Source: a virus (lineage: Duplodnaviria > Heunggongvirae > Uroviricota > Caudoviricetes). Taken from it: 44,162 bases of DNA. A program made the translations under genes and the position numbers. Shown one piece after another: positions 11,329 through 44,162 of the stretch. How positions within the stretch are numbered: the first letter of the stretch is position 1; each line of letters begins with the position of its first letter. Below the pieces are notes generated by a model. It saw nothing but the letters and a program-made list of their open reading frames with translations, searched no databases and was not told the origin of the DNA. Location of the stretch: IMG/VR virus record IMGVR_UViG_2541047704_000003; one strand, 5' to 3'.

Positions 11329-11988
11329 TCACCCAAACGTCTCTTCAGGCCATTGGCTGGCGATAACTTTCCCCACAACGGAACAACTCTCATTGCATGG
11401 GATCATTGGGTATTGTGGGTTTAGTGGCTGTAGAAACACCTGACCGCTATCCCTGATCAGTTTCTTGAAGGTAAATTCATCACCACTAAGTCTGGCTATG
11501 CAGAAATCGCCGGGCTCAACAGCTTGCTCAGGGTCAACCAGAATTAACATCCCGTCAGGAAAGCTGGGTTTGGAACCTGTTGGTGCGGTCATTGAGTTAC
11601 CTTCAACCTCAAGCCAGAATGCAGAGTCACTGGCTTTTTTGGTTGTGCTTACCAATCTCTCCGCATCGCCTTTGGTAAAGGTTCTGAGTTCTGGAGAGAA
11701 CATCCCAGCCTGAACATGAGAAAAAACAGGGTACTCATATTGTTTTTTAACTGGGGCCGATGAGTATTCGCCAACAGGTGAAAATGTCCCGTCGTGGTTG
11801 AATGATATGTTATCAATACCAAGGTATTTAAACACCACACCAATATCACTAAGAGATGGATGACGAGATCCGCGCAACCAGTGTCCAATCCCACCCTGCG
11901 TCATACCTAGCTCTTCGGCTAACTTCTCTTGAGTTATGCCGAGCTCTTTCATTCTGGATCTAGCCAGTTCATACCATTTCATTTTCAT
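11329..11988 (-). CDS. cI: CI-type prophage repressor (HTH N-terminal domain plus LexA/S24-like autocleavage domain)
   Basis: C-terminal ~130 aa ([21 protein letters not shown]...[15 protein letters not shown]) matches lambda CI; N-terminal HTH ([20 protein letters not shown]) differs from lambda; start uncertain (ATG 11988 favoured, track ORF starts with TTG at 12030). Confidence 0.8.
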
Positions 11989-12030
11989 GTCCTTATTATT
12001 ACGCTCTGTACTGGAACCATCCATGCACAA

Positions 12031-12090
12031 TGTGTATTTTTACTTGTATTCGCAAAGTACATATTGTATTTTTTTTATTCGTGTTTACTA
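12031..12090. promoter_or_regulatory. candidate oR/pR-pRM divergent operator-promoter region
   Basis: intergenic region between divergent cI and cro; contains AAAGTACATAT (12054-12064), the reverse complement of the oL 11-mer, and repeated TTGTATT elements. Confidence 0.45.
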
Positions 12091-15882: not shown

Positions 15883-16226
15883 CAATGGATTATTCACAGT
15901 TAAGTGATTTTGAAATTAACAGAATGGTAGGAGACATAATTTTTAAAGGCCTTTGGGCAAGTAAACCGGAAACATCAGGGAATAACACCAACAAATGGTA
16001 TTACGGAAATGCTGATACAACTTTTGAGCCATTAAATCATTTGCCTGACTACTGCAATGATCCGAGCGCTTCATGGCCGATTATTGAGAAATACAGGATT
16101 TCTATCTTAGACCAGTTAACTGAATGGTGTGTGGATGCAAAAGGCGTAAGCCCAATATTTGATACCAGACCTCTCCGCGCCGCCATGATTGTCTTTCTCC
16201 TGATGCAGGAGGCCAATAATGCTTAG
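15879..16226 (+). CDS. hypothetical nin-region protein
   Basis: 115-aa frame from [24 protein letters not shown]...; coupled ATGA overlap with ninE; family not confidently recognised. Confidence 0.45.
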
Positions 16227-16392: not shown

Positions 16393-16755
16393 GTGAATAC
16401 CTACAGCATCACATTACCCTGGCCTCCGAGCAATAATCGCTATTACCGCCATAATCGCGGGCGCACGCACGTCAGCGCAGAGGGGCAGGCATACCGCGAT
16501 AACGTCGCCCGAATCATTAAAAACGCAATGCTGGATATCGGCCTGGCTATGCCTGTGAAAATCCGCATTGAGTGCCACATGCCGGATCGCCGTCGCCGTG
16601 ACCTGGATAATCTGCAAAAAGCCGCTTTTGACGCACTCACTAAAGCAGGTTTCTGGCTGGATGATGCTCAGGTCGTTGATTACCGCGTTGTGAAGATGCC
16701 TGTTACCAAAGGTGGGAGGCTGGAACTGACCATCACCGAAATGGGGAATGAATGA
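16393..16755 (+). CDS. rusA: RusA Holliday-junction resolvase
   Basis: 120-aa ORF (GTG start) [31 protein letters not shown]... matching E. coli DLP12 RusA. Confidence 0.9.
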
Positions 16756-17549: not shown

Positions 17550-18632
17550 TTAGAACTGATAAACCAGACCTACAGCGACGATGTCGTCGGTATCAATACC
17601 AGCTGTTTTGGTAAACTTACTATCGTCAATTAAGTTGATTTTGTAATCAACAAAAGTGGACATGTTTTTATTAAAGTAGTAAGTAGCACCGACATCGACA
17701 TACTTGACTAAGTCTCGGTCACCATGAACACCAAGGTCTTTACCTTTTGACTGAAGGTAAGCAACAGATGGACGCAGACCGAAGTCAAACTGATATTGTG
17801 CTACTGCTTCAAAGTTTTGTGCTTTGTTTGCAATATGGTTATTACCAAAAACGGTCATATTCTGAGTTTCAGAATATGTGGTAGCCAGATAGATATTGTT
17901 CGCATCATATTTCAGGCCTGCAGCCCATACTTCCGCATTTTTGCCGGAGGCATTGAATTTGCTCTTACCATAGGCGACCTGACCGTCAGTGCGATCTGAT
18001 TTAGCATAGGTTGCACCCACGCCGAATCCTTCATACTCATAAGTAGTGGAGAAACCGAAACCATCACCATTGGCTTCAGTTACGTCAGTGCGGTCATTTT
18101 TACCCTGATACTGAGCAGCAAAGTTCAGGCCATCGACCAGACCAAAGAAGTCGTTGTTACGATAAGTTGCAACACCAGTAGTGCGACCAGTCATGAACAC
18201 ATCTGTTTGGGTCCAGGTATCACCACCGAATTCTGGCAGAACGTCAGTCCACGCACCGATGTCGTATGCTACACCGTAGTTACGGCCGTAATCGATTGAG
18301 CCGTAATCACCAAATTTCAGGCCTGCAAATGCAAGACGGGTTTTGTCTTTGGAAGAACCTTGAGATTCAGCACGGTTGCCTTTGAATTCATATTCCCACT
18401 GACCGAAACCAGTCAGTTGATCGTTGATTTGGGTTTCACCTTTGAAGCCAAGACGGGCATAAGTAGTATCACCATCATCTGCATCATTAGAGGAGAAGTA
18501 GTGCTTGGCATTAACTTTCCCGTATAGATCCAGCTTGTTACTGTCTTTATTATAAATTTCAGCTGCCTGAGCAGACATCGCCATCAGTACTGATGCAGCT
18601 ACAGCAGAAATTGCCACTGTTAATTTTTTCAT
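17550..18632 (-). CDS. general outer-membrane porin (OmpC/OmpF/NmpC family)
   Basis: signal peptide [23 protein letters not shown], porin-family N-terminus [18 protein letters not shown]-terminal ...VGLVYQF ending in Phe; located between Q and lysis genes on the opposite strand as nmpC is in DLP12. Confidence 0.9.
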
Positions 18633-19058
18633 TGTACGCCCTTTTTTTGAACTTTTATTAAAAAATGATGTCACTGCGCGATAAATATTCATCTAATCAA
18701 TGTGATTATTTCAAGATGTAAGTTTTAGTTTCTCATTTAATTTGTGAAGTAGATCTCTATTTTTATCTGAACCTTTTCTATCTAATCCTATTCATGGCTC
18801 TTGTCTGAACAAAAATAAATCTATTAGCTAATTTATATTAATGGCACTTATTTATAAGTGCTCTATAATTCTTTAGCTTAATTTAAACAAACTAAAAATA
18901 ACATCGGAAATTATTAACTGGTTATTTGTTGAAGTTTTCTTATGCATTTGTGGTGGTGTTTTGAACACTCGGTGGCATTCTCACAAATATCATTTAGTAG
19001 TTTACGTACGTAAAAAATTGGTTATGCTGTTAAGAGTGGTTACTTCGTCACACAGCTT

Positions 19059-20422: not shown

Positions 20423-20716
20423 TTATTGTGAGCAATACACACGCGCTTCCAGCGGAGTATAAATGCCTAAAGTAATAAAACCGAGCAATCCATTTACGAA
20501 TGTTTGCTGGGTTTCTGTTTTAACAACATTTTCTGCACCACCACAAATTTTTGCTGCATCGACAGTTTTCTTCTGCCCAATTCCCGAAACGAAGAAATGA
20601 TGGGTGATGGTTTCCTTTGGTGTTACTGCTGTAGGTTTGTTTCCAACAGTAAACGTCTGTTGAGCACATCCTGTAATAAGCATTGCCAGAGCGGCAGAAA
20701 ACAACATTTTTTTCAT
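20423..20716 (-). CDS. bor: Bor outer-membrane lipoprotein (serum resistance)
   Basis: 97-aa frame MKKMLFSAALAMLITGCAQQTFTVGNKP... matching lambda Bor; lipobox ITGC. Confidence 0.85.
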   Translation of the reverse strand: MKKMLFSAALAMLITGCAQQTFTVGNKPTAVTPKETITHHFFVSGIGQKKTVDAAKICGGAENVVKTETQQTFVNGLLGFITLGIYTPLEARVYCSQ

Positions 20717-21196
20717 CTTATTATCCTGCATTGTTAAAAACGGCAGAATCCTATGTGACAACAATTAAACGATAGTTAAATGGATTGATGAAAATTAAAA
20801 CTACACAGGTGGGCTCAGACTATTGGAGGAAGTTGGGGACACTCAGAATCCTGTGGAATGAAATAAACCGGTCTATCCGTCCATTACCCTTTTAGCTGCG
20901 CTGTATCGTCGCCGTATTCCCGCATTAACCATGACCGTAGCCCGACGGGGAATTCCTTCTGCGTGAGTGTGCGGGAATAATTAAAAACGATGCACACCGG
21001 GTTTTTACCGCGTTAATGATTCGCGGGTTTATCCCGGTGCGATGGTGGAAGAAACAGGAAGCTGTATTACAGAAAGTGCTACTACTGTATCCCGATGCGA
21101 TGTATGTAATGTGAGTCAGATAATGGCACAGGATGTGGTGATGTGGCAGTCTGGAACACAGGATATATTGTCAGAATAAGACCCGTAGGAATAAAA

Positions 21197-21523
21197 ATGA
21201 AAAGACGCCTTTTACTACTTTTTCTGTTATCTGTCCTGGCAGTGGGATGCTCGCAGCAAAAAGCTGATGAGCCCCGGCAATTAGTGACGGTGTATCCACG
21301 ATATCCGGAATATGCTGCAGCAAATTATATCAAGGGGCTGGTTGAGGTTAAGTTCGATATTGGTGCTGATGGGACTGTGACACGGATCGTTTTTCTCCGC
21401 TCAGAGCCTCATAATTTGTTTCGTGATGAAGTGGTGAAGGCCATGGCGAAATGGCGATTTGAAAAGAATCGCCCCTGTCAGGGAGTGAAGAGACAATTTA
21501 TCTTTACGCCGTCACGTCCTTGA
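21197..21523 (+). CDS. lipoprotein with TonB C-terminal-like domain
   Basis: lipobox LAVGC after signal peptide; YPRYPEYAAANYIKGLVEVKFDIGADGTV...AMAKWRFE resembles the TonB_C/energy-transducer fold signature; AGGA ribosome-binding site upstream. Confidence 0.55.
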   Translation: MKRRLLLLFLLSVLAVGCSQQKADEPRQLVTVYPRYPEYAAANYIKGLVEVKFDIGADGTVTRIVFLRSEPHNLFRDEVVKAMAKWRFEKNRPCQGVKRQFIFTPSRP

Positions 21524-22286: not shown

Positions 22287-22298
22287 GGGCGGCGACCT
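22287..22298 (+). other. cosN cohesive-end site (GGGCGGCGACCT) within cos
   Basis: exact lambda 12-nt cohesive end followed by lambda-like cosB sequence CGCGGTTTTTCACTATTTATGAAAATTTT, immediately upstream of nu1. Confidence 0.8.
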
Positions 22299-22474: not shown

Positions 22475-23023
22475 ATGAAGGTTAATAAAAAGAGGCTTGC
22501 CGAAATTTTCAACGTGGACCCGCGGACGATTGAACGCTGGCAGTCTCAGGGACTCCCTTGCGCCTCCAAAGGTAGTAAGGGCATTGAATCTGTATTTGAT
22601 ACTGCCATGGCAATTCAGTGGTATGCGCAGAGGGAAACTGATATCGAAAACGAAAAGCTCCGCAAAGAACTGGACGATTTGCGTGCGGCAGCGGAGTCAG
22701 ATTTACAACCCGGCACCATTGACTATGAACGCTACCGGCTCACAAAAGCGCAGGCAGATGCGCAGGAACTGAAAAATGCCCGTGAAGACGGAGTAGTGCT
22801 GGAAACTGAACTGTTTACCTTCATTCTGCAACGTGTGGCACAGGAGATTTCGGGGATACTTGTGCGTGTGCCGTTGACATTACAGCGTAAATATCCGGAC
22901 ATTTCACCATCACACCTTGATGTGGTGAAAACTGAAATCGCGAAAGCCTCCAATGTTGCAGCTAAGGCCGGTGAAAACGTGGGCGGGTGGATCGATGATT
23001 TCAGACGCGCAGAAGGCAGCTAA
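22475..23023 (+). CDS. nu1: terminase small subunit
   Basis: 182-aa [31 protein letters not shown]... closely matching lambda Nu1. Confidence 0.9.
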
Positions 23024-24923
23024 TGCAGCCGGTGCGATAGCTACAGGGCTTTTATCTCTCATTATTCCTGTTCCACTGACGACAGTTCAGTGGGCCAATA
23101 AACATTATTACCTTCCTAAAGAGTCGTCTTATACCCCGGGGCGATGGGAAACACTGCCGTTTCAGGTTGGCATCATGAACTGTATGGGCAACGATCTGAT
23201 TCGCACGGTTAACCTGATTAAATCTGCCCGTGTTGGTTATACAAAGATGTTGCTGGGAGTGGAGGCTTATTTTATTGAGCATAAATCACGCAACAGCCTT
23301 CTTTTTCAGCCCACGGACTCAGCTGCTGAAGATTTTATGAAATCTCATGTTGAGCCAACGATAAGGGATGTTCCTGCATTGCTGGAGCTGGCTCCATGGT
23401 TCGGAAGAAAACACCGCGATAATACGCTCACCCTGAAGCGTTTTTCCTCCGGTGTGGGGTTCTGGTGTCTGGGTGGTGCGGCAGCAAAAAACTACCGTGA
23501 AAAATCCGTGGATGTGGTCTGTTATGACGAGCTTTCCTCGTTCGAACCGGATGTTGAAAAAGAGGGTTCGCCAACCCTGCTGGGGGATAAACGTATTGAG
23601 GGCTCTGTATGGCCAAAATCCATTCGCGGCTCGACGCCTAAAATCAAAGGCTCCTGCCAGATCGAAAAAGCCGCTAACGAGTCGGCACACTTCATGCGTT
23701 TTTATGTGCCCTGTCCGCACTGTGGGGAGGAGCAGTATCTGAAATTTGGCGATGATGCCTCGCCTTTCGGTCTTAAGTGGGAGAAGAATAAGCCAGAAAG
23801 TGTTTTCTACCTTTGTGAGCATCATGGCTGTGTGATCCATCAGTCTGAGCTTGACCAGAGTAACGGGCGGTGGATCTGTGAAAACACGGGCATGTGGACC
23901 CGTGACGGCCTGATGTTTTTCAGCGCCCGGGGTGATGAAATTCCGCCGCCGCGCTCCATCACTTTCCATATCTGGACGGCGTACAGTCCGTTCACCACCT
24001 GGGTACAGATTGTCTATGACTGGCTGGATGCACTGAAAGATCCCAACGGCCTGAAAACCTTTGTGAACACCACGCTGGGCGAGACCTGGGAAGAGGCTGT
24101 GGGCGAAAAACTCGATCACCAGGTGCTGATGGATAAGGTTGTGCGTTACACGGCGGCGGTGCCTGCCCGGGTGGTTTATCTGACGGCGGGCATTGACTCG
24201 CAGCGAAACCGTTTTGAGATGTATGTCTGGGGATGGGCTCCGGGAGAGGAAGCCTTTCTGGTGGATAAAATCATCATTATGGGGCGTCCCGATGAGGAAG
24301 AGACGCTGTTACGTGTGGATGCGGCGATCAACAAAAAATACCGCCATGCAGACGGAACCGAAATGACCATTTCCCGTGTCTGCTGGGACATCGGGGGGAT
24401 CGATGGCGAAATCGTTTATCAGAGGTCAAAAAAACACGGTGTTTTCCGGGTGCTGCCGGTAAAAGGCGCGTCTGTCTATGGCAAGCCGGTGATCACCATG
24501 CCGAAAACCCGCAATCAGCGGGGCGTTTATCTGTGTGAAGTGGGGACGGACACCGCAAAATAAATTCTCTATGCCCGTATGAAAGCCGAGCCCACGCCTG
24601 CGGATGAAGCCACGTCGTATGCCATCCGTTTTCCTGATGATCCGGAGATTTTTTCGCAGACAGAGGCGCAGCAACTGGTCGCGGAAGAGCTTGTGGAGAA
24701 GTGGGAAAAAGGAAAGATGCGTCTGCTGTGGGATAACAAAAAGCGGCGTAACGAAGCGCTGGACTGCCTGGTGTATGCCTACGCGGCATTACGTGTGTCC
24801 GTGCAACGCTGGCAGCTTGATCTGGCTGTACTGGCAAAATCCCGGGAAGAAGAGACGACCCGGCCAACCCTTAAAGAACTGGCAGCGAAGCTGTCCGGAG
24901 GAGTGAATGGTTACAGTCGCTGA
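22995..24923 (+). pseudogene. A: terminase large subunit gene A interrupted by a single in-frame TAA at 24561-24563
   Basis: N-terminal 522 codons (22995-24560) and C-terminal 119 codons (24564-24920) are in the same frame and both match lambda gpA; the only interruption is TAA where lambda has a sense codon (TDTAK*ILYARM vs lambda TDTAKEQIYNRF by recollection). Confidence 0.7.
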
Positions 24924-25113
24924 ACTGCAGGCGCTGCGTCAGGCGCGCCTTGATTTATTAACCGGTAAACGGGTGGTGTCTGTCCAGAAAGATGGTCGCA
25001 GAATTGAATATACGGCGGCTTCTCTGGATGAGCTTAACCGGGCGATCAATGATGCGGAGTCGGTACTGGGGACAACCCGGTGTCGCCGTCGTCCGCTGGG
25101 AGTGAGGTTATGA
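24907..25113 (+). CDS. W: head-tail connector protein W
   Basis: 68-aa ORF, same size as lambda gpW with conserved LTGKRV.SVQKDGRR core. Confidence 0.8.
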   Translation: MVTVAELQALRQARLDLLTGKRVVSVQKDGRRIEYTAASLDELNRAINDAESVLGTTRCRRRPLGVRL

Positions 25114-26702
25114 AACGAACGCCTGTCCTGATTGATGTGAACGGCGTTCCGCTTCGTGAGAGTCTCAGCTACAACGGGGGCGGTGCAGGATTTGGCGGGC
25201 AAATGGCTGAGTGGTTGCCACCGGCGCAGAGTGCCGATGCGGCCCTGCTGCCCGCGTTGCGTCTGGGGAATGCCCGGGCAGATGATCTGGTGCGCAATAA
25301 CGGAATAGCGGCTAATGCGGTGGCTCTGCATAAGGATCACATTGTCGGGCATATGTTTCTGATCAGCTACCGTCCGAACTGGCGCTGGCTGGGGATGCGG
25401 GAGACCGCAGCAAAAAGCTTTGTCGATGAGGTGGAGGCGGCCTGGTCGGAATACGCCGAAGGGATGTTTGGCGAGATCGACGTGGAAGGAAAACGCACGT
25501 TCACGGAATTTATCCGTGAAGGTGTGGGCGTTCATGCGTTTAACGGCGAAATCTTTGTGCAGCCGGTCTGGGATACGGAAACCACGCAGTTATTCCGTAC
25601 GCGTTTTAAAGCCGTGAGTCCGAAACGGGTGGACACGCCAGGACACGGTATGGGGAACCGTTTTCTGCGGGCCGGTGTGGAGGTCGATCGATATGGTCGT
25701 GCCGTTGCGTACCATATCTGTGAGGATGATTTTCCGTTCTCTGGTAGTGGACGATGGGAACGGATCCCGCGTGAACTTCCCACCGGGCGTCCGGCCATGC
25801 TGCATATTTTCGAGCCGGTGGAGGACGGGCAGACCCGTGGGGCTAATCAGTTTTACAGCGTCATGGAACGGCTGAAGATGCTCGATTCCCTGCAGGCAAC
25901 ACAGCTTCAGTCGGCCATAGTGAAGGCGATGTATGCAGCGACGATTGAAAGTGAACTTGATACCGAAAAGGCCTTTGAATATATCGCCGGCGCGCCACAG
26001 GAGCAGAAGGATAATCCGCTTATTAATATTCTGGAGAAGTTCTCCAGCTGGTATGACACGAATAACGTGACACTGGGCGGTGTCAAAATTCCGCACCTTT
26101 TCCCTGGTGATGATCTGAAACTACAGACTGCGCAGGATTCAGACAATGGATTTTCTGCGCTTGAACAGGCGCTGCTGCGGTATATCGCCGCCGGTCTTGG
26201 CGTTTCCTACGAACAGTTGTCCCGTGATTACTCGAAGGTCAGTTACTCAAGTGCCCGCGCCTCCGCCAATGAGTCGTGGCGCTATTTTATGGGGCGGCGA
26301 AAATTTATTGCGGCCCGGCTGGCCACGCAGATGTTTTCCTGCTGGCTGGAAGAGGCACTTCTTCGGGGGATTATTCGTCCGCCACGGGCACGTTTTGATT
26401 TTTATCAGGCGCGATCAGCCTGGTCACGGGCAGAGTGGATTGGTGCCGGAAGAATGGCCATTGACGGGCTCAAGGAAGTCCAGGAATCAGTGATGCGCAT
26501 TGAGGCCGGACTGAGCACGTATGAGAAAGAGCTGGCGCTGATGGGCGAGGATTATCAGGACATTTTCCGCCAGCAGGTCAGGGAATCTGCTGAGCGGCAA
26601 AAAGCCGGACTCTCACGTCCGGTGTGGATAGAGCAGGCGTATCAGCAGCAGATAGCGGAGAGTCGTAGGCCGGAAGAGGAGACAACACCACGTGAGACGT
26701 AA
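25110..26702 (+). CDS. B: portal protein
   Basis: ~530-aa frame matching lambda gpB (e.g. FEPVEDGQTRGAN.FYSVME..KMLD.LQ.TQLQSAIVKAMYAATIESELDT). Confidence 0.9.
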   Translation: MKRTPVLIDVNGVPLRESLSYNGGGAGFGGQMAEWLPPAQSADAALLPALRLGNARADDLVRNNGIAANAVALHKDHIVGHMFLISYRPNWRWLGMRETAAKSFVDEVEAAWSEYAEGMFGEIDVEGKRTFTEFIREGVGVHAFNGEIFVQPVWDTETTQLFRTRFKAVSPKRVDTPGHGMGNRFLRAGVEVDRYGRAVAYHICEDDFPFSGSGRWERIPRELPTGRPAMLHIFEPVEDGQTRGANQFYSVMERLKMLDSLQATQLQSAIVKAMYAATIESELDTEKAFEYIAGAPQEQKDNPLINILEKFSSWYDTNNVTLGGVKIPHLFPGDDLKLQTAQDSDNGFSALEQALLRYIAAGLGVSYEQLSRDYSKVSYSSARASANESWRYFMGRRKFIAARLATQMFSCWLEEALLRGIIRPPRARFDFYQARSAWSRAEWIGAGRMAIDGLKEVQESVMRIEAGLSTYEKELALMGEDYQDIFRQQVRESAERQKAGLSRPVWIEQAYQQQIAESRRPEEETTPRET

Positions 26703-28197
26703 TCTTTCACACATTATTGCCGCAGCATTCAATGAACCGCTGCTTCTGGAGCCCGCCTATGCGCGGGTTTTCTTTTGCGCGCTCGGGCGCGAGATGGGGG
26801 CAGCAAGTCTTTCGGTACCACAACAGCAGGTACAGTTTGATGCTCCCGGAATGCTGGCTGAAACGGACGAGTACATGGCCGGAGGTAAACGACCGGCCCG
26901 TGTTTACCGGGTGGTGAACGGTATTGCTGTACTGCCGGTGACCGGCACGCTGGTGCACCGGCTGGGTGGTATGCGGCCATTTTCCGGAATGACAGGCTAT
27001 GACGGCATTGTCGCCTGTCTTCAGCAGGCAATGGCGGATAGCCAGGTGCGGGGCGTACTGCTGGACATTGACAGTCCGGGCGGGCAGGCCGCCGGCGCGT
27101 TTGACTGCGCTGACATGATTTACCGCCTCCGTCAGCAGAAGCCGGTCTGGGCACTGTGCAATGACACGGCCTGTTCTGCAGCCATGCTGCTGGCGTCGGC
27201 CTGCTCCCGACGGCTGGTTACCCAGACATCCCGTATCGGCTCCATTGGCGTGATGATGAGCCATGTCAGCTATGCCGGTCATCTGGCGCAGGCCGGTGTG
27301 GATATCACGCTGATTTACTCAGGGGCGCACAAGGTGGATGGCAATCAGTTTGAAGCGTTGCCGGCAGAGGTTCGCCAGGACATGCAGCAGCGGATTGATG
27401 CGGCGCGCCGGATGTTTGCCGAAAAAGTGGCGATGTATACCGGTCTGTCTGTTGATGCCGTCACGGGAACAGAGGCTGCCGTTTTTGAAGGTCAGTCCGG
27501 CATTGAGGCCGGGCTGGCGGATGAATTAATCAATGCGTCGGATGCCATCAGTGTGATGGCCACGGCGCTGAACAGTAATGTCAGAGGAGGCACTATGCCG
27601 CAATTAACTGCAACGGAAGCCGCCGCGCAGGAGAACCAGCGAGTGATGGGGATCCTGACATGCCAGGAAGCGAAAGGACGTGAACAGCTTGCCACGATGC
27701 TGGCAGGGCAACAGGGCATGAGCGTTGAACAGGCCCGGGCGATTCTGGCCGCGGCGGCACCGCAGCAGCCGGTGGCATCCGCGCAGAGTGAAGCCGATCG
27801 CATTATGGCGTGTGAAGAAGCGAACGGTCGTGAACAACTGGCGGCAACGCTGGCGGCGATGCCGGAGATGACGGTGGAAAAAGCCCGCCCGATCCTGGCT
27901 GCTTCACCGCAGGCGGATGCCGGACCATCACTCCGTGATCAGATCATGGCACTGGATGAGGCAAAAGGGGCTGAGGCGCAGGCTGAACAGCTGGCTGCCT
28001 GCCCGGGAATGACAGTGGAGAGCGCCCGGGCTGTGCTGGCTGCGGGATCAGGTAAGGCAGAACCGGTCTCTGCATCCACAACCGCCCTGTTTGAACATTT
28101 CATGGCGAACCATTCACCGGCAGCGGTACAGGGTGGCGTGGCACAGACGTCAGCAGACGGTGATGCGGACGTGAAAATGCTCATGGCCATGCCATGA
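26692..28197 (+). CDS. C: head maturation protease / scaffold (C with in-frame Nu3 region)
   Basis: 501-aa ORF; N-terminal ClpP/S49-like protease region matches lambda gpC; C-terminal scaffold region carries three diverged copies of a ~49-aa motif. Confidence 0.85.
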   Translation: MRRNLSHIIAAAFNEPLLLEPAYARVFFCALGREMGAASLSVPQQQVQFDAPGMLAETDEYMAGGKRPARVYRVVNGIAVLPVTGTLVHRLGGMRPFSGMTGYDGIVACLQQAMADSQVRGVLLDIDSPGGQAAGAFDCADMIYRLRQQKPVWALCNDTACSAAMLLASACSRRLVTQTSRIGSIGVMMSHVSYAGHLAQAGVDITLIYSGAHKVDGNQFEALPAEVRQDMQQRIDAARRMFAEKVAMYTGLSVDAVTGTEAAVFEGQSGIEAGLADELINASDAISVMATALNSNVRGGTMPQLTATEAAAQENQRVMGILTCQEAKGREQLATMLAGQQGMSVEQARAILAAAAPQQPVASAQSEADRIMACEEANGREQLAATLAAMPEMTVEKARPILAASPQADAGPSLRDQIMALDEAKGAEAQAEQLAACPGMTVESARAVLAAGSGKAEPVSASTTALFEHFMANHSPAAVQGGVAQTSADGDADVKMLMAMP

Positions 28198-43868: not shown

Positions 43869-44162
43869 ATGGATATAAGCCCCTTACTTCATGCGCTTTG
43901 TGCTGTGGCTGCGCAGATACTGGTTGGTCTTTTTACCGGAAACTGGGCTTACGGAGCGATAGCCGGTTGTACGTTTTTCATTGCGCGTGAACATACCCAG
44001 GCAGAATATCGCTGGATTGAAATGTTCGGGCATGGCAAGCGAATGAATATGCCGTGGTGGGGCGGTTTTGATCCGCGAGCTTGGGATGTGGCAAGCCTGA
44101 TGGATTTTGCTGTGCCGGTGGTGGCGTGTCTGCTGGTCTGGCTGTTGGTTAATCGTGGGTGA
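43869..44162 (+). CDS. hypothetical small membrane protein (two predicted transmembrane helices)
   Basis: 97-aa ORF with strong AGGAGG ribosome-binding site; hydrophobic segments LLHALCAVAAQILVGLFTG and LMDFAVPVVACLLVWLLV; stop codon is the last triplet of the window. Confidence 0.45.
   Translation: MDISPLLHALCAVAAQILVGLFTGNWAYGAIAGCTFFIAREHTQAEYRWIEMFGHGKRMNMPWWGGFDPRAWDVASLMDFAVPVVACLLVWLLVNRG

Follow-up and report, generated by a model that had tools for sequence, protein, structure and literature searches.

We identified a premature ochre codon in the terminase large subunit gene (A) of a lambdoid prophage, and the combined evidence makes it most probable that this codon is a genuine and very recent loss-of-function mutation in an otherwise intact prophage of the phage-21/ev017 type. 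The prophage sits next to icd in ST73-like E. coli, and the equivalent site lies between icd and sitD in the ST73-type strains CFT073, Nissle 1917, ATCC 25922, and clone D i14. It was analysed as a window of 44,162 nucleotides (IMG/VR record IMGVR_UViG_2541047704_000003), by which we mean the whole stretch of DNA, beginning where the integrase coding sequence ends and finishing with the last phage ORF. The prophage is probably unable to make infectious particles on its own. The lesion is most likely a case of ordinary prophage decay, less likely a sequencing error, and involves no new mechanism.

A nonsense codon in an otherwise intact prophage

The reading frame of gene A runs from an ATG at 22995 to a TGA at 24921-24923, and its sole in-frame TAA, at 24561-24563, makes codon 523 of 642 a stop, leaving 522 sense codons before it and 119 after it. 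Positions 24556-24566 show AAA TAA ATT (in the wider interval 24550-24572, ACC GCA AAA TAA ATT CTC TAT), and the 522-residue translation from the ATG has the C-terminal end TDTAK. This frame holds one internal stop, compared with 22 and 42 in the remaining two forward frames, and gpA profiles from Pfam match both halves; gene A is therefore one interrupted gene and not a chance pair of ORFs. A preliminary description of this DNA had reported the TAA as splitting a gpA-like frame, and both the sequence and the translation agree with it, coordinates included.

That description had also attributed the stop to a single substitution, as opposed to a frameshift or rearrangement, and had proposed a comparison with closely related prophages. 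In a 121-nt alignment with CFT073 and phage ev017, neither a frameshift nor a rearrangement is found at the site, and the sole difference is G>T at 24561, by which the GAA (Glu523) of the relatives becomes TAA in the window. Across the whole of gene A, the window and the CFT073 allele differ at this one position. The intact protein is 65% identical to lambda gpA over 637 aligned residues (MAFFT, with the internal stop included); lambda likewise has a glutamate, E523, and its local sequence is TDTAKEQIYNRF, as the preliminary description had correctly given it. Both the translation and this alignment place the conserved gpA C-terminus downstream of the stop in the same frame, as that description had further claimed, and the lambda-like overlap of A with gene W that it noted is present, at 17 nt here versus 4 nt in lambda. 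The features of the region are collected in Table 1.

Table 1. Features of the cos-terminase-portal region of the window, with positions numbered from its first letter
Feature	Position	Strand	Basis
cosN, 12-nt cohesive-end sequence GGGCGGCGACCT, terminase cut site	22287..22298	.	identical to first 12 bases of lambda
Terminase small subunit gene (Nu1-type, 182 aa), intact	22475..23023	+	100% identical to PhiR57_1 Nu1; Pfam Phage_Nu1
Terminase large subunit gene A, 5' part, 522 codons and TAA	22995..24563	+	translation; Pfam; EQO19203.1 / WP_021518271.1
Premature ochre TAA replacing GAA (Glu523), mutated base 24561 G>T	24561..24563	+	alignment
Untranslated 3' remnant of A, codons 524-642 and TGA	24564..24923	+	same frame; 100% identical to CFT073 and second-prophage alleles; Pfam
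114-aa ORF from first in-frame ATG past the stop; separate gene per gene finders	24579..24923	+	ORF calls
Gene W (head-tail adaptor), intact	24907..25113	+	100% identical to PhiR57_1 W
Portal gene B, intact	25110..26702	+	1 aa difference from PhiR57_1; Pfam Phage_portal_2

The remainder of the window reads as a complete phage. The lambda-type order of cosN, Nu1, A, W, and portal is present, and the phage 21 record begins at the window position of cosN. The late region is nearly identical to those of isolated phages (99.8% over 24 kb for PhiR57_1, about 100% over 21.9 kb for ev017, and 99.6% for phage 21), which indicates that the intact A allele is the working state. PhiR57_1 aligns to the window from end to end, with 99.975% identity in the first 16 kb, where the integrase end and the early region lie, and all 69 of its coding sequences as far as the window's right end keep their full length here, with an internal stop in A only. 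The earlier suggestion that the prophage is otherwise nearly complete is thus upheld by these 69 genes and an intact cosN. Its label of "cryptic" is too strong, as the genes for immunity, excision, replication, and lysis all read intact, and so do those for head and tail. What the window does contain is an inactivating lesion in a gene essential for virions, of which isolated phages carry the intact allele, a feature expected of a defective (packaging-deficient) prophage.

PhiR57_1 extends 5.3 kb beyond the right end of the window at 44162 (44298-49482) and carries sitABCD, an iron/manganese transporter, in this extension, while sitD directly follows the window-equivalent end in related chromosomes. 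From these two observations, the full prophage would measure about 49.5 kb and include sitABCD as cargo, which has been reported in 70% of infant-gut lambda-like phages (PMC6969025). Further cargo inside the late operon region, all of it identical to PhiR57_1, comprises a porin gene between Q and the lysis genes (17550-18692, minus strand; its relatives are annotated as OmpC or OmpD), then, after Rz, a bor/iss gene for a serum-resistance lipoprotein (20423-20716, minus strand), and a TonB-C-terminal-like ORF ahead of cos (21143-21523).

Distribution of the stop-bearing allele and other private changes

We queried 5,426 complete E. coli genomes with a 55-mer carrying the T allele, with every 28-nt seed forced to span the T, and recovered no match. 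The G version of the same 55-mer matched 2,955 places in 1,854 complete E. coli genomes, none of them with T, and this control establishes that the negative result for T is valid. A T-carrying 39-mer had no exact match in viral, species-representative, and metagenome contig collections, and a 501-nt query aligned to 19 phage records at 97.4-99.8% identity, none reaching 100% and all with a sense codon in this region. The TAA-bearing sequence was found in one draft assembly, GCA_000456485.1, whose scaffold KE699127.1 is identical to the window over 21.5 kb. No complete genome was identical to the window, the best relatives differing from it at at least 7 sites in 22 kb. The T allele is private to one assembly, and its count of zero against 2,955 for G fits a young mutation that has not yet spread.

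An exact-protein look-up listed the 522-residue product on 16 contigs. We considered these contigs as a recurrence of the T allele and rejected that reading, since those listed, bar KE699127.1, end at the base before 24561; at least five contigs from other assemblies or metagenomes end precisely at the window-equivalent of 24560. These ends likely mark a repeat boundary between two prophage copies, in that the last inter-prophage difference plus k gives 24560 (24449 + 111, or 24419 + 141). An assembler that breaks at a fixed k-mer distance, followed by an exact-match look-up that selects the contigs so broken, accounts for their recovery. The same artefact may mislead anyone tallying truncated terminase proteins in databases.

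Besides the stop in A, the window has four private changes: cI G180S (11487), an additional T at 12069, the loss of 40 bp at about 16231, and, at 43976, a synonymous substitution. These indicate that the window prophage is a distinct natural lineage and not the reference with one odd base. Approximately 4.2% of the possible single substitutions in A produce a stop codon, so that it is no surprise to meet one nonsense change in so small a set of private mutations.

The cI gene (11329-12024, minus strand) carries G180S in its C-terminal (LexA/S24-type) domain, the sequence of which is identical to the end of lambda cI, with G180 at lambda position 185. The substituted residue lies seven residues before what we take to be the catalytic Lys (lambda K192, by C-terminal alignment), and from this position the change could act on cooperativity or on cleavage mediated by RecA; the literature was searched for cI Gly185 and gave nothing usable. 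The additional T falls in a cI-cro intergenic T-run (12062-12069), which is T8 in the window versus T7 in PhiR57_1, clone D i14, and ATCC 25922, and this could be either a true change in PR/PRM spacing or a homopolymer miscall. The 40-bp deletion separates the window from all relatives examined and lies between ninX (15885-16226) and rusA (16393-16755), flanked by an imperfect repeat, C(A/T)CTCAAT / CTTCAAT, in a stretch that carries what is left of a DUF1364 gene according to RefSeq.

The second lambdoid prophage of CFT073 carries a gene A that differs from that of the window up to 24449 and is identical over 24450-24995, a tract of 546 bp that spans 24561; both CFT073 prophage copies have G at the 24561-equivalent position. 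Three portal SNPs in the window (25640, 25697, and 25706) match the alleles found in CFT073's second prophage and in the ATCC 25922 icd prophage, and differ from the icd prophages of CFT073, Nissle, and clone D. By its sequence, this patch looks like the outcome of gene conversion between prophages residing together in this lineage, with a tract length of 67 to about 626 bp. Two gene C SNPs, at 27708 and 27781, are likewise shared with ATCC 25922.

The foremost alternative to a genuine mutation is that base calling or assembly of the draft wrongly produced the T at 24561 and that the true prophage has GAA and an intact terminase, which we consider unlikely. It draws some support from the occurrence of T in one assembly and nowhere else among the collections searched, from the location of the site within a tract exactly duplicated in the second prophage of related strains, which is harder to assemble and polish, and from the homopolymer-length difference at 12069 (T8 versus T7), a class of change that is often artefactual. 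Against it, the G in both CFT073 copies means that mixing of reads between them would not yield T, and what is required is a clean substitution error at a place where the local sequence is non-repetitive. The same scaffold also carries variants that are unlikely to be artefactual, namely a missense change and a 40-bp deletion flanked by microhomology, and random miscalls would produce a stop in only about 4% of cases, no more often than real mutations. We therefore favour a genuine and very recent nonsense mutation in A.

Lesions that arose independently in gene A are present elsewhere. In other E. coli genomes, a 1,358-bp internal deletion (window-equivalent 23212-24569) leaves ORFs of 75 and 114 aa in a heavily decayed remnant in which the portal gene is truncated too. 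A second, in a Logan assembly, is a frameshift due to the loss of 1 nt from a G-run (GGGG>GGG) at position 2190 of that sequence.

Predicted consequences for DNA packaging

On the reading of a genuine stop, translation would end after residue 522, and the product would retain the Nu1-binding N-terminus and the ATPase domain while missing the portal-docking tail together with the last quarter of its nuclease domain, which is RNase-H-like. Besides the Nu1-binding N-terminus, the 522-codon part encodes the entire ATPase domain and, of the nuclease domain, about 73%. The Pfam GpA_ATPase profile matches residues 46-293 of the product (E 6e-57), and in the Walker A region KSARVGYT of the window aligns to KSARVGYS of lambda at residue 76. 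The GpA_nuclease profile matches residues 323-522 at profile positions 3-214 of 294 (E 1e-52) and resumes at positions 230-287 on the 114-aa downstream ORF (E 2e-11), whereas an intact relative is matched over residues 323-601 (profile 3-286 of 294). No one terminase polypeptide of the window thus bears a complete endonuclease domain, the product ending at profile position 214. The 120 residues from 523 to 642 are lost. They include the nuclease domain's final quarter as well as a C-terminal tail that binds the prohead (portal) and is encoded at 24564-24920, 3' of the stop.

In the alignment with lambda gpA, the positions of D401 and K497 are kept and that of E586 falls after the stop; any functional role of these residues is one we presume from their aligned positions, and a literature search on lambda gpA E586 returned nothing usable. 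A PDB sequence search with the intact large terminase found no solved relative, so the role assigned to the segment that is lost derives from its Pfam profile and from lambda genetics, and not from a structure. In lambda, the extreme C-terminus of gpA is the domain that binds the prohead, and the Aam42 mutation, a nonsense change at A's fifth-to-last codon, blocks packaging through the loss of five terminal residues (PMC4856287). The Aam42 terminase is unable to dock on the portal and phage yield is very low, a yield that wild-type terminase in trans raises about 2,000-fold (PMC4856287). By analogy, the effect of losing 120 residues should be no milder. The packaging defect, which the preliminary description had suggested and which we likewise predict, follows from two losses, that of the nuclease domain's end and that of the prohead-binding tail.

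Upon induction, we would expect excision, replication, late transcription, the building of proheads and tails, and lysis of the cell still to proceed. Proper cutting at cos and docking on the prohead would fail, such that DNA-filled infectious particles would be absent or very rare, and lysogeny and immunity would stay normal. Induction should still kill the cell because the immunity, excision, replication, lysis, head, and tail genes read intact. Nonsense mutants in lambda A form a clean complementation group and late transcription is Q-antiterminated, and for these reasons we do not expect strong polarity on W and B. A route of rescue may be provided by a co-resident lambdoid prophage with an intact A, through recombination or complementation; given a suitable second prophage, the defect should be easily overcome, in view of the 546-bp identity tract in CFT073 and the precedent of the Sakai prophages (PMC2669165).

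It is very improbable that the stop is real and a functional terminase is nonetheless made, whether by an ochre suppressor, by programmed read-through, or by reassembly of two fragments after re-initiation at ATG 24579. This in-frame ATG lies 15 nt past the TAA and opens an ORF holding the remaining protein, and nonsense mutants are classically rescued by suppressors. A tRNA scan of the 44-kb window, however, found no tRNA gene, so that the element itself carries no suppressor, and UAA is recognised by both release factors and terminates efficiently. Nothing in the sequence suggests programmed recoding, as the stop is conserved nowhere and TAA is carried by 0 of the 2,955 homologous places. 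Re-initiation would have to occur where the upstream sequence, TAAATTCTCTATGCCCGT, contains no Shine-Dalgarno motif, and the break falls inside the nuclease domain, not between domains.

We likewise give little credence to the idea that truncation was selected, either because the host keeps the immunity genes and cargo of a prophage that does not spread, or because a truncated large terminase hinders packaging by related superinfecting phages. In its favour, of the five private changes, three hit sites of functional weight (in cI, the C-terminal domain beside the catalytic Lys; the intergenic region of cI and cro; and gene A), terminase genes are independently disrupted in other genomes, and the truncated product retains its Nu1-binding and ATPase regions. 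The allele is nevertheless confined to one genome, and loss of packaging does not stop lysis on induction, leaving the benefit to the cell unclear; moreover, five mutations are too few for a test, and one nonsense change among them is within chance. An elaboration in which the stop in A, cI G180S, and the altered T-run lock in a domesticated prophage with its immunity and cargo (sitABCD, bor/iss, and the porin), and the 522-aa protein serves as a dominant-negative decoy against phage-21-type phages, is similarly far-fetched.

Relation to known terminase mutants and defective prophages

The phage type and the gene are already established, as are the way in which packaging fails and the rescue routes, and the importance of the lesion is small beyond correct annotation and a caution against calling prophages intact by their gene content. 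The 522-aa and 114-aa ORFs are to be annotated as one pseudogene and not as two proteins. Prophage predictors would score this element as intact, yet self-packaging has probably been lost, which is of relevance wherever phage production, the mobility of sitABCD, or the safety of a strain is inferred from sequence alone. The window also illustrates prophage inactivation at a young stage, consisting of a single base with no other damage, which recombination with a sister prophage could easily reverse.

The closest relatives of the window are phage 21, ev017 (Jouyvirus ev017 in its taxonomy line), and PhiR57_1, with which it shares 99.6-100% identity in the late region and the gene order cos-Nu1-A-W-B-C-D-E...J-stf. 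Unlike the window, these have GAA at codon 523 and entered the databases as genome records of phages. Small lesions in single essential genes also mark lambdoid prophages of E. coli O157 Sakai, which are still inducible and can be repaired or packaged by way of other prophages in the cell, and recombination between prophages creates new phages (Asadulghani et al. 2009, PMC2669165). One of these, Sp4, has a disrupted terminase subunit and is still packaged, apparently by the terminase of another prophage (PMC2669165). The Sp4 lesion is an IS insertion in nu1, whereas that of the window is a point nonsense change in A and is known from the DNA sequence only.

Lambda mutants of the Aam42 type provide the nearest genetic parallel, in that both are cos-type lambdoid phages whose gene for the large terminase has acquired a nonsense codon, with loss of the prohead-binding tail. 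The defect in lambda A nonsense mutants is recessive and complementable in trans by wild-type terminase (PMC4856287), and we infer the same for the window. The gene in the window is of the phage-21 type, 65% identical to that of lambda, and its allele is a natural ochre from a clinical-type isolate as opposed to the amber of lambda; the stop at codon 523 of 642 also lies further upstream than in Aam42, such that part of the nuclease domain is lost as well. With these differences, the window holds a natural equivalent of the classical nonsense mutants in lambda A and a further case of the small lesions by which lambdoid prophages are inactivated.
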